This document shows, in pieces, positions 19,272 to 25,200 of a DNA stretch of 64,000 nt. The notes under the pieces were generated by a model that did no database searches, was not told the DNA's origin, and saw only the letters and a program-made list of their open reading frames with translations. The stretch spans positions 37,696,001-37,760,000 of the forward strand of contig OZ231126.1 in assembly GCA_965153355.1 (NCBI GenBank). The letters are read 5' to 3'. This DNA comes from Flaccisagitta enflata (lineage: Eukaryota). A program made the position numbers and the translations under genes. The stretch's first letter is position 1; each line of letters starts with the position of its first letter.

Positions 19272-22200
19272 ATGGGTAAAAGTGGGAAAAGTAAATCCGA
19301 CGCTAAAAAAGCGGCGACTGTAAAAGGAGTTCCTCAGGGCGTCTCAGTCGCCGCAACGCCCAACAAAACCGCCGCCAGGTGAGTAACATAAAATCAGCTT
19401 GGCTGTGTTTGTGGTGCCACAGACCTGACTGAGTAACAACATCAGTTAGGGTGTGTTCACAGTGTCTCGTTTCAATCGGTATGGCATGGATATGTGACTA
19501 ATAACATCCACGCCATGGCGCAATCGTTCTGTCACTGGAACATTTATGGCAATTAAAATCCCACCTTTTGTAGATGGCCTGTGTGTCCCTATATCTGCTG
19601 GAAGGTCAATTGTTATAACGCGTGCATCCAGCAACGATGAATGAGTGAATGAGTGAGTGTACGTACCAATTCATTAAGTGAAATATTTCATAGCAAGTGA
19701 ACATCTTTTTGCGTTGCGGACAAACGCGTTGCTGAGGTTGATGCTGACATGCGATAGCGCTCATCGGGGCTTCCATAATATGGCTCGCGGTTATGTAGAG
19801 ACGCAATTTTTTCCCTGAGCTACAGATAAGCCTTGGAGCCAAGCACAGTTTTTTTTTCTAGTAAGGGAATGAAATCGGTTTTTTTTCAATCCGTTAATCC
19901 CTGTCTCTACAGACTACCTTTCCTGTCGGCCTGACAAATTCTAAATGTCTGTCTTTTCGTCTGTTTTTCTGTCTGTCATTTTATTTGTCTGTAGGTTCAT
20001 GCCATGGGCAGTGATTCCTTCCCTGCGACAATTGACAAGTTTTTAGTCGCGCATACGCGACTCTACACCCCGCGTTGTCCGTCCGTCCGTCCGTTGGTCG
20101 GTCGGTCTGTTTGTCTGCCTGTCGGTCCGTCACATTTTTACATCTTTTATCAATTTCAATTTCTTTAGTCATTTTAAGTCATTTAAGAGTATACTATGTC
20201 ATTCTAAGTCATTCTAAGTCATCATGTAAGTCTCGCACGCGATTTACAGGTGTTGGCCTTGTTTTCATTCTCCATCCATGAGACTTCATTTCCCATTCGT
20301 AATTTATTCCCATTCCTACTTTTGTTAACTACGGCAGCTCCTTGACGGCCATTCCCGAGGGAGTAGGAGGTGGAGGAGGAGGAGGCGGAGGAGGAGGAGC
20401 AGCAACGCGTCTTCAAGGCGATGATCTTCTCAAAGACCCCATGGCCCAGCTTTTCGGAACCGTCAAAGTACAGGTACTGAACTTGAGAGACGGTGCATTT
20501 CATACACTTTTGTCCAGTATCTTGCACAGCAAGGTCTTTGTCGGCAACGCTCAGCCTCGTGGTCTTATCAAGGAGGCATTAATACACTGTACAGGCATTT
20601 ACATTGGCATTGATACACGCATTCATACAGGCATTTATACATGGTCATGTTTTCTTTGTTTTGCTTTTGTTTATTTTTGTTGTTTAGTTTTTTTTTCTCG
20701 ATTTCCTTCCCAAGGAACCTGAGGAGGTCGTGGTTCACAAAGTAAAGAAGAACAAAAAGCCGAAAATGTCAAAAGAAGAGAAAGGTACAAAGACTTGTAT
20801 TATTTGCCATGATTTTTTGAAATCACTTTATTCACAATGCGCCGTGCTCATGCCCATGCCCACACCTAATTTTGGTGATTATTTGCTACCGTCTGATTGA
20901 ACATTTGAATTGAAAATAGAAAGGATGAAATAAAGTAGAATCATCTCATTTCCCTTTTTTTACAGTACGAGAATCGAAGAATTGACCAACTCCAGGGAAG
21001 CGATATCTGCCAAACCGCTAGGAATCAAGCTAAAATTTTTTACCTCATAATGCACCTATAGGTCCTCTATATTGCATAAGGTTTTGGAGCGAATCCGAGA
21101 ATTTCATTTTTTTTTTTACAAAAAAATTTTTTTCAGTTTTTTGCTGATTTTAACCACAAAAATTACACACGAAAAAAATTCTTTCATATGTATATTAGTA
21201 AGACACATTTACATAAAATTCATTTTTTGTTGGAGATTTTCCGCCCATTTTTGGGGCAACGGCACCCAAAACTCAAAAAACACAAAAAGTGGAATATCTC
21301 CTCAGGTTTTCAATAAAATCCTCTGATTTTTGGTGTGGTAGTAGTTTTTGGACTCACTAATAAGTGTGCAAAATTTCAGTTCTTCAAAAAAAATTTTGAC
21401 ACAGTTATGAAATTTTGAAATTTTCACAAAATGCAATGTAAGAGGTTTTACCCTCCAAAATTTTTTTTTGAAATAAAAAATTTTGCCAATTGTTATTTTT
21501 TGACATAGTTAATTATAAATTAAGAGTTTCTGAAAAAAATTTTTAACTAGCCCTCTTAGAAAATTTTTTTTTTTTCTCAAAAATCGTGAAAATGACCTCT
21601 TTTTTAAAGTTGAATAAAAACTGTTCCTGTCATCCGATCATCTTCATTTTTGGTGGAGTTGTTACCTATTATCTACCCTAACTTCACCTAAAATTTGAGC
21701 TCACTGCGCCAAACGGTTAAGGATATATTGACGTTCAAAGTTACTTTGTCAGAGCAAAATCAGCAAAATTAGCATTTTGGCCATTTTTGAGCTTGCATAA
21801 AATTTCATTTTTTCTTCCAGAGACCTCCATTTTGGCTGAAGTTACTCAGGTTTAAGCATATATTCATATTCCAAAATTTCACACTTGTCAGCCAAGCCGT
21901 TTTAGGGATATGATGGTCCAAAGTTTTAAAAAACGCCAATTTTTCAACAAAAATTACAATGAAAATTTTTCCAAAAAATTTGAAAAAAAAGTTGTCCTCA
22001 AGGTTTTGAATCTGGGTGAATAAGATAATTCCCAATTGTGTTGAACCCCCTTTTGGAAACCATTTTATGAAAATTTTTTGCTTATTTTTTTCCCTAAGAT
22101 TTGGTTGAAAAATTGGCGTTTTTAAAACTTTGGACCATCATATCCCTAAAACAACAACTGACAAGTGTGAAAAGAGAATATGAATATATGCTTAAACCAA

Positions 22201-25200
22201 ACTTTCAAATGGAGGTCTCTGGAAGAAAAATGAATTTTATGCAAAAAAATGGCCAAAATGCCAATTTTGCTGATTTTGCTCTGACAATCTTTGAACATCA
22301 ATATCTCCACAACCGTTTGGCGCAGTGAGCTCAAATTTTTGGTGAAGTTAGGGAAGATAATAGGTAACAACTTCACCAAAAATGAAGATGATCGGATGAC
22401 AGGAACAGTTTTTATTCAACTTTAAAAAAGGGGTCATTTTCACGATTTTTGAGAAAAAAATTTTTTTTCTAAGAGGGCTAGTTAAAAATTTTTTTCAGAA
22501 ACTCCTAATTTATGATTAACTATGTCAAAAAATAATAATTGGCAAAATTTTCTATTTTAAAAAAAAATTTTGGAGGGTAAAATCTCTTACATTGCATTTT
22601 GTGAATATTTCAAAATTTCATAACTGTGTCAAAATTTTTTTTGAAGAACTGAAATTTTGCACACTTATTAGTGAGTCCAAAAAACTACTACCACACCAAA
22701 AATCAGAGGATTTTATTGAAAACCTGAGGAGATATTCCACTTTTAGTGTTTTTTGAGTTTTGGGTGCCGTAGCCCCAAAAATGGGCGGAAAATCTCCAAC
22801 AAAAAATGAATTTTATGTAAATGTGTCTTACTAATATACATATGAAAGAATTTTTTTCGTGTGTAATTTTTGTGGTTAAAATCAGCAAAAAAACTGAAAA
22901 AAATTTTTTTGTAAAAAAAAAAATGAAATTCTGGGATTCGCTCCAAAACCTTATGCAATATAGGGGACCTAAAGGTGCATAATAGGGTAAAAAATTTTAG
23001 ATTGATTCCTAGCGGTTTGGCAGATATCGCTTCCCTGGAGTTGGTCAATTCTTCGATTCTCGTACTGTACACATTTGTACAAAGAATTCATGAAGTTGGA
23101 AAACATGACGAATTCGTTTATGAACTCTGGCGAGGGTTACAACACGTTCATCGAGAGGATCGACACGTGGATCCTAAAGAACTTCCGAGGAGTCGTCAAG
23201 CTTTTCACCGAATACGACATCGACGGCGACGGAGAACTTTCATATGAAGGTTGTTAGTGTGTGTGTGTGTGTGTGTGTGTGTGTGTGTGTGTGTGTGTGT
23301 GTGTGTGCGTGTGCGTGTGCGTGTGTGTGTGTGTGTGTGGGTGTGGGTGCCGACCTTCAAATTATGCAAGAAATTTTATCCTTAGATTTCCGACACATGC
23401 AGCTTAACTAAATCTGGCTTGCCCATATAAAAATATTACAGAAAAGCACATCCGACAGACCAACTCTGTAAAACACTCCATTTTCCTCTTGATTGCCTTC
23501 CTGCCTTAGTAATTCAATTCACACTGAATTTAGCAAATTATCTATGAAAGAGTTTCAATGGCCTTCAAATAAATGTTGAAATTTGAATTTTCATGTCTCT
23601 TCACTTTGCTCAAAATTCCAATGCATCATCCCCTTTTAAGATTTTCCGTCAAGCTTCCTTGCCTTCTGAGAGGTGGCGCCTCTCGCCTCTCCTTGATTTG
23701 AAGGTCTGTGTGTTTGTGTTTGTTTATGAGTTTTCTTTCTCTCTCTCTCTCTCTCTCTCTCTCTCTCTCTCTCTCTCTCTCTCTCTCTCTCTCTCTCTCT
23801 CTCTCTCTCTCTCTCTCTCTCTCTCTTTCCACCTCATTCCTAGTCAACTTTTCGCCATTCAATTTCAGAATTTAAGTTGGGTATGGCCGATTTGGGGGCT
23901 CCGTGTAACCAAATCGAACTCCACGCCTTATGCAAGTTGATCGATGCTGATGGTGACGGTACCATTGACGTCAGTGAATTTCAGGTGAGTTGCGCTGAAA
24001 ATTTGGCCGAACGTAGATGAGCAGCCTCCGGCTTATTGTTTGATATCATTTTGTCAAAGTGATTGTTTTGAATCGAATCTTCTTCCCAAAGGTTTCTAAA
24101 TTGCGATATTTGAATAAACTTCTTGACTGATGTTGATCGTTTTTTTTTGTTTTTTTTTTTTCAGCGCGATTTTGAGGTTTGTTTGCTTTAACGTTTGTAT
24201 GTTTAAACCCAGTCTCGGGAAATGCGAATGCGTAGCCGTACTAATGTAATGATTATGTGAGAAGGCGGGACTGACGAATGAATTAAGCAACTACTATCTT
24301 AGAAATAAAAAGGTTTCCACACGATTACATGTATATCTCAGACTAGAATCAACGAATCATCAAAAAATTGGTGAGATTATTGAAGCCTTTCAAATTTGCA
24401 AGCAATCTACGCAAACCGCATCTCTCTAACTCAATGCATTCAAAAGTTATTAAACTTTTGATGAAATGTTTCAATTTGATTTTTGCCATTTCTAAGCAAT
24501 CTTCAAATGATAATACATCACTTTTTTTCAAATAACTTCTAAACGCGTTGAGCTAGACAGATGCGGTTTGCGTAGACTGCTTGAAAATTCTAAGGTCTAC
24601 ATTTATGTCACCAATTTTTTTATGATTTGTTGAATCTCTTTGGAGCTTTAAGTTGAAACGTAGCAAAAAAAAAAGATCAAAAAAAGCCCTAGAAAGGTCT
24701 GGAACGCCATCACTCCAGAGTATCTACGGAAGCGCTACAAATTTCTTCTCTGATGAATGGCGGCAGTGATCAGTCAAAGGAGGCTAACATAAAATATTCA
24801 TTGATTCGCGATTGATTTGTGTTCATTTTTATGTCAAAAAATGATCTTTTGTTACAGGTGGAAACCTTTTTATTTCTAAGATAGTAGTACTAATCCATGC
24901 CAAATTGTCTTATGTCTTACATCACCCCGCGGAAGAGACCTGTTTCAGGTATTTAAGAGCTGCCACCCTCCAATTTTTTCACATTTCACTCCCAAATTGT
25001 CCCCTGCATGTGGGAAAACCGTCGAAAAAAAAATCTAGCACGAATTTTCCCGTCCATCCCCTTGCAATTGAACCTCAGTCGGTATTCTTAACAGCCTAAT
25101 CAGGGAGCTTAACAGCAGAAACTAAAGTGTAGGGTAAAAATTACCAAAAAATCCTGGAACTTCACTATTCTGACATATTTTTCCGTGCTGAACACAAATC

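Follow-up and report, generated by a model that had tools for sequence, protein, structure and literature searches.

A polymorphic foldback transposon between the pyrimidine tract and the acceptor AG of an EF-hand gene in Flaccisagitta enflata

What becomes of a gene when a long self-complementary transposon lands between the pyrimidine tract and the acceptor AG of one of its introns? The question is raised by an EF-hand gene of Flaccisagitta enflata, which lies in a window of 64,000 nucleotides (assembly GCA_965153355.1, contig OZ231126.1, positions 37,696,001 to 37,760,000 of the forward strand; positions below count from the first letter of this window). Intron 3 of the gene carries a foldback element of 2,105 nt, inserted 15 nt ahead of exon 4 (Table 1). 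The insertion is polymorphic, and the first three bases of the element place a decoy acceptor directly behind the old pyrimidine tract. Tentatively, we rank first the reading that this is a leaky, splice-disrupting allele of reduced function in a weakly expressed gene.

The initial annotation held that the element separates the tract from its AG just before exon 4, and that use of the decoy ends the protein after six residues; the coordinates of element, TA duplication and acceptor agree with the first claim, and joining exon 3 to 20966, which gives VRESKN-stop, agrees with the second. Behind the right copy of the target TA, 15 nt lead to the in-frame AAG that ends at 23084. On the left, a 13-nt pyrimidine run that ended 16 nt ahead of exon 4 in the original intron now abuts the decoy CAG, and splicing there would remove an intron of 181 nt, compared with 193 nt for the original intron 3. 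The adenosine of a CTCAT motif next to this run, which on its motif is the probable branch point, stands 17 nt from the decoy AG; in the empty allele, 29 nt separate it from the real AG. The decoy AG thus falls in the interval [BP+8, ACC-4], from eight nucleotides past the branch point to four before the acceptor, in which human AG gains mis-splice in 82% of cases (PMC10655562). Eleven of the 12 nt adjoining the decoy are pyrimidines, as against 7 of 12 for the real AAG, and the decoy keeps both branch-like motifs. No TNAY motif occurs 10-50 nt ahead of the real acceptor in the filled allele, whereas all seven other acceptors of the gene have one, a weak test given that 107 of 151 background spans contain TNAY as well.

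That the insertion is real follows from several lines of evidence. In the genome (794 Mb in 9 contigs), the TA plus the first 31 nt of the element has 163 exact matches, against none for the reversed 33-nt control; 17 of 20 fetched copies have both ends, 1,819-2,128 nt apart, with TA on both sides in 16 of the 17. These exact ends, two-ended copies and TA flanks point to a young, dispersed family, and, together with a contig of run X1 that spans 20401-20985 and crosses the left junction without a difference, they lead us to reject an assembly artefact. X1 is probably the source of the assembly and so not independent; it lists no second haplotype and has no break at the insertion point. In the marine metagenome run X3, two contigs agree with the window as far as 20964, and their next 30 letters correspond to 23072-23101, with identity at 28 of the 30 positions. 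They are the empty allele with a single TA, which the initial annotation had asked for. One contig of run X2 stops at precisely 20964, the point at which the filled allele departs from the empty one, and among the pieces listed (594 others lie outside) none from X2 holds the filled junction; these comparisons cover the left junction. Judged by their contig ends, X1 would be homozygous (or hemizygous) and X2 a heterozygous carrier.

We propose the following sequence of events. A young foldback element inserted at a TA between the probable branch point with its pyrimidine tract and the AG of intron 3, and its CAG end would act there as an AG gain. The shortened intron would be complete about 2 kb ahead of the transcription of the second arm, so that many or most transcripts would splice to the decoy and then end, whether through the stop six codons on, a cryptic donor or one of the element's polyadenylation signals. 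A minority would escape to the real acceptor once the stem had formed. The decoy would be an accident of the element's end, with no adaptation involved. We favour this reading because the decoy has the richer tract and both branch-like motifs while the real acceptor has no TNAY; because human AG gains usually mis-splice and some fly introns splice as soon as their acceptor emerges (10.1101/2020.11.05.367888); and because the decoy lacks stable pairing in four of six folds of transcripts that hold the left arm only, both folds of the shortest prefix being the ones that pair it. Since the decoy has no stable pairing in most of these predicted folds before the right arm exists, the splicing outcome would be a race between folding and splicing. 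For fly introns, a study that considered elongation at 1-3 kb/min gives 1.9 min as the median half-life (PMC5762160); by our own arithmetic, transcribing 2.1 kb at these rates takes 0.7-2.1 min, about as long as splicing.

Once both arms exist, the picture changes. The predicted fold of 20880-23140 reaches -1516 kcal/mol, with T20961:A23069 at the base of the stem and both TAs included; this fold pairs the decoy CAG and leaves single-stranded the 15 nt ahead of the real AG. The initial annotation's description of an RNA whose fold conceals the decoy CAG, with the AAG only 15 nt beyond the base of the stem, is thus reproduced by prediction, as is a stem placed between branch point and AG over cryptic AGs, a feature of structure-bridged acceptors. 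The annotation proposed self-masking, in which folding of the 1-kb stem precedes the choice of acceptor. The stem would conceal the decoy and all internal AGs and bring the real AAG again within some 30 nt of the original branch point and tract, so that splicing would be almost normal. Stems in the yeast COF1 and UBC13 introns act in this way, shortening the distance from branch point to AG and masking cryptic AGs (PMC3239191), splicing half-lives leave time to fold (PMC5762160), and the apparent homozygosity and the intact frame would be readily understood. Against this, the pairs that hide the decoy form last, and the same fold pairs part of the old pyrimidine tract with the upstream intron. 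Human regions between distant branch points and their AGs are described as unstructured and scanned (PMC3239191), and those of neural microexons as unusually unpaired (PMC12871342). The yeast stems, moreover, belong to fixed introns with at most a few hundred nucleotides between branch point and AG, whereas here the stem is a predicted one of 1 kb, polymorphic, and in an animal. The decoy resembles known AG-gain alleles in placing a new AG at branch +17 and upstream of the real one, and differs from them (PMC10655562) in arriving with 2.1 kb of self-complementary sequence that possibly hides it. On balance we regard self-masking as rather unlikely.

The real acceptor is also less bare than the initial annotation implied. 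Its distant AAG is indeed in frame, but the right arm supplies replacement pyrimidines (21 of 32) and a 42-nt zone free of AG ahead of 23084. The seven other acceptors of the gene have 6-11 pyrimidines in the adjacent 12 nt and 19-27 in 32, and the AAG falls inside both ranges; the 17 nt adjoining it are unchanged. Exon 4 could then be defined across the exon, with the tract of the right arm sufficing and the decoy passed over as other intronic look-alikes are, so that no folding would be needed. This account must contend with the missing TNAY branch motif, with a tract that lies inside the stem once the RNA folds, and with a decoy just 181 nt from a free donor, and we give it only a small chance. 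Alternatively, exon 4 could be skipped: exon 3 joins exon 5 in an open frame, the product would be 55 residues shorter and would lack the first EF-hand loop, and 31% of disease-associated AG-gain variants lead to skipping (PMC10655562). A strong acceptor close behind the exon 3 donor would be encountered first, however, and we consider skipping improbable. A recursive route, with a new donor formed at the join of exon 3 and the decoy, was set aside as unlikely; it is out of frame to 23084 and in frame only to an AG at 23095.

Use of the decoy need not end the matter. With the donor of exon 4 it would yield a composite exon of 2,284 nt that contains nearly the whole foldback, and such an exon could be a substrate for SOS splicing, the imprecise removal of paired terminal repeats that clears exonic insertions from 90-100% of host mRNAs and works without the natural repeat sequence (PMC12779559). 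Excision of that type would restore the frame in about one third of imprecise joins, with a few residues gained where the Lys-rich linker ends. The left arm is open for 17 nt and the right arm for 72 nt; of 441 joins that lie within 10 nt of the ends, 147 consequently keep an open frame through exon 5. Like known substrates, the locus has a transcript with the terminal repeats of a DNA transposon paired in it, and the genome encodes the three factors, CAAP1 (one match), AKAP17A (two loci) and RtcB (two loci), although their presence does not by itself show activity. It departs from these substrates, which are exonic or untranslated-region insertions, in that the element is intronic in DNA and becomes exonic only if the decoy is used; in that report SOS splicing was not seen for an intronic Tc1, is demonstrated in C. 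elegans and human cells alone, and gave 2% in-frame products for a Tc3 allele (PMC12779559). The route further requires that 10 donor-like sites on the + strand and three polyadenylation hexamers in the element be ignored, one third is the plain expectation for frame, and the site of the exon 3-exon 4 join is free of gaps in the alignment of homologues. We did not find exonisation through a decoy ahead of SOS splicing described in the literature searched, in which the term SOS splicing led only to that study and one review, and we hold the route to be quite unlikely here. As to the factor genes themselves, the two AKAP17A loci lie about 190 kb apart in opposite orientation (C3:22871768-22883337, + strand; C3:23053728-23062437, - strand) and those of RtcB on C4 and C8; each pair may be a real duplication or an assembly duplicate.

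The available RNA bears lightly on these possibilities. In run X11, the stretch 20401-21060, which includes the decoy, drew 3 of 12,162,974 reads, all poly-T look-alikes near 20650, and no joints; this stretch stops short of exon 4 and of the exon 3-exon 4 join. The analysis covered some 6% of the run (1,824 million letters), in which no read fell on exons 2-3. At 1 read per kilobase per million (RPKM) some 2.8 reads would be expected on the stretch, so that expression of the gene in this sample is put at about 1 RPKM at most. Zero exon reads fit RNA decay but also low expression, and no read speaks for masking, skipping or SOS excision. The metatranscriptome X8, which contained 0.05 of the sequence words, does not count as evidence. 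Several observations count against a leaky, damaged allele: no splice junction has been seen, all nine exons are intact, homozygous and heterozygous carriers, as X1 and X2 appear to be, are odd for a harmful allele, and the race is not one-sided, with a half-life of 1.9 min set against 0.7-2.1 min of transcription (PMC5762160). The choice between a null allele and self-masking that the initial annotation offered keeps both its members but was too narrow, since skipping is in frame, a substitute tract is present and decoy use may be followed by SOS excision. That the 1-kb stem of the RNA itself mends the harm done by the insertion, which would be why the allele is common and found in homozygotes, whether by masking and bridging or by exonisation and SOS excision, appears possible but doubtful to us, and we judge fold-dependent rescue by the two routes taken together in the same way.

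As for the element itself, the arms make up nearly its whole length. Their identity is 95, 97, 99, 98, 98, 95, 93, 90, 84 and 83% in successive blocks of 100 columns and drops to 45% at the centre, and the first 66 nt form a perfect inverted repeat. The longest stop-free frame is 110 codons, and no transposase lies inside. It has a TA target duplication, begins with CAGT and has terminal inverted repeats without a transposase, and a longer DDE element in the genome shares its ends; by these sequence features, and by its many similar copies, we file it as a non-autonomous foldback of the IS630-Tc1-mariner (ITm) kind, of which C. elegans Tc6 is an example. Foldback and miniature inverted-repeat transposable elements (MITEs) of this group differ from it in three respects: its 2.1 kb, its arms that span almost everything, and a family of about 80-160 copies by exact ends, not thousands. 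MITEs usually measure under about 800 nt. The initial annotation's term "hairpin MITE" was apt for the hairpin, the TA and the long arms, but with 2,105 nt here and 1,819-2,128 nt in 17 family copies the element is too long for a MITE in the strict sense, homogeneous as the copies are.

The wider family bears on whether the decoy is peculiar to this site. The first 298 nt of the element gave 40 scored matches at 97-100% among 999 first-look candidates, and 13 of the 17 complete copies are 94-96.5% identical to the window copy over their length. Shorter, deleted copies exist (L087, L088), and four other long or odd ones (L082, L083, L085, L086) contain nested insertions or rearrangements; from position 3516 of L085 onward runs a nested frame of 1,053 codons, which we take to resemble an endonuclease/reverse transcriptase of a long interspersed element. 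Of 60 distinct family ends (the window's two and two of the transposase-bearing L084 included), 59 are preceded by TA, and 7 of the 60 flanks have at least 12 pyrimidines in the 15 nt ahead of the end. The decoy CAG is a family trait, a by-product of every TA+CAG end. One further copy (L081 1633-3787) has a similar setting, preceded by a strong pyrimidine tract and followed, 18 nt past its right end, by an AG but by no demonstrable exon, and among 24 complete copies in 48 orientations none was shown to sit at a real acceptor. The suggestion that self-masking explains tolerance of intronic palindromes in general is thus not supported, the more so because two other inverted-repeat elements, both in intron 5, sit away from acceptors.

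A candidate for the enzyme that moved the element came from the long family copies. L084 is 7,002 nt long (L084 377-7378), with terminal repeats of 972 nt, a TA duplication and a first 58 nt identical to those of the window element; farther in than 200 nt, identity between the arms of the two elements falls to 52-75% per 100 columns. Its predicted eight-exon frame of 596 open codons has a helix-turn-helix region and D, D and E motifs, and its Pfam matches are weak, both under the cut-off (HTH_28, E 0.016; DDE_3, E 0.08). A second transposase element, L093, has repeats of about 1,050 nt with 70% identity to the window arms, and its protein is 84-89% identical to that of L084 in three segments; in L094, a third copy that is more distant, these terminal repeats are missing. 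Among 30 fetched loci of 68 DDE_3 matches none resembled the element. We infer that L084 or a close relative mobilised it; the polymorphism is a sign of recent movement and not of which enzyme was responsible. L084 recalls Sailor (DD82E) in the motifs around the second D and the E, the long D-E spacer, the length of about 7 kb and the very long terminal repeats (PMC8533490). Sailor elements, however, have DD78-111E spacing, mostly TATA duplications and ends that start with GT or CC (PMC8533490), whereas L084 has a TA duplication, ends that start with CA (CAGT), a gene with introns, and a spacer of DD121E (with the donor and acceptor it shares with L093) or 132 (with another acceptor), a length that depends on predicted exon joins. 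By spacing, duplication and ends it falls outside the definition of Sailor; L084 and L093 possibly represent an unclassified, Sailor-like ITm group of about DD121E with TA duplication.

The host gene comprises nine predicted exons whose GT-AG introns leave a single open frame of 374 amino acids (Table 1). The protein aligns at 31-36% with uncharacterised EF-hand proteins of Hydractinia, Clytia and Owenia, and the EF-hand matches of exons 4 and 5, scanned as separate exons, lie near or below the Pfam cut-offs; no full-length protein was found from transcripts of this species. Exon 4 has one genome match, as expected of a single-copy gene, and with the intact frame this rules out a pseudogene or spare copy. 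Codon 23189-91 in exon 4 encodes Gly in the window and Arg in all five members of the metagenome cluster, a slight hint of relaxed selection. Metagenome contigs also share an identical exon 4 peptide with different intron flanks (P0001, P0031 and P0032 versus P0030 and P0033), suggesting that several related lineages may exist in the sea.

Table 1. Host gene, foldback element and insertion site in window coordinates.
Feature	Position	Strand	Remarks
Exon 1 (coding part)	19260..19378	+	predicted from GT-AG joins
Exon 2	20338..20473	+	predicted
Exon 3	20715..20784	+	Lys-rich; intron 3 donor GT at 20785-86
CTCAT branch-like motif and 13-nt pyrimidine run	20945..20961	+	A at 20948; branch point from motif only
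Left TA target duplication	20961..20962	+	one TA in the empty allele
Decoy CAG acceptor	20963..20965	+	first three bases of the element; AG at 20964-65
Non-autonomous foldback element	20963..23067		arms ~20963-21990 and 22060-23067 (~1 kb each)
In-frame TAG in right arm	23010..23012	+	final 72 nt ahead of exon 4 open in the exon 4 frame
Right TA target duplication	23068..23069	+	
End of original intron 3 (last 15 nt)	23070..23084	+	holds the in-frame AAG acceptor
Exon 4	23085..23249	+	first EF-hand loop
Exon 5	23869..23984	+	second EF-hand
Exon 6	31612..31746	+	
Exon 7	33728..33887	+	
Exon 8	41388..41486	+	
Exon 9, to stop codon	41881..42005	+	

Other features of the window include the two elements of intron 5, one of 599 nt (24290-24888), whose terminal inverted repeat of 31 nt is perfect and whose inner repeat of 131 nt stands at 77%, and one of 6.46 kb (24922-31382) with terminal repeats of 353 nt at 99%, further inner inverted repeats and nested repeats. 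Another hairpin element (13283-13806) has arms of 236 nt that are 92% complementary and a 52-nt loop. On the minus strand, three exon-like open segments (54015-54107, 54442-54573 and 58778-58888) probably belong to a second gene; searched as single exons, they had no Pfam match.

Taken by itself, the locus is one polymorphic insertion of a well-known element class in an uncharacterised gene, and nothing new is shown about splicing. Our literature search found no report of such an arrangement, a weak absence, as most subscription papers lay outside the search. The site occurs both with and without the element, and each of the five outcomes would leave its own junction at donor 20784, which makes the locus a natural test system. 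Rescue of the allele by masking, if true, would widen structure-bridged acceptor choice to animal introns and to stems of kilobase length, with the spliceosome bridging 2.1 kb; rescue by excision would extend SOS splicing to insertions that are initially intronic and would link spliceosomal exonisation to it. By either route, this would be a naturally occurring insertion at a splice acceptor whose damage is made good by the fold of the transposon itself, and such rescue would bear on the persistence of foldback elements near exons.

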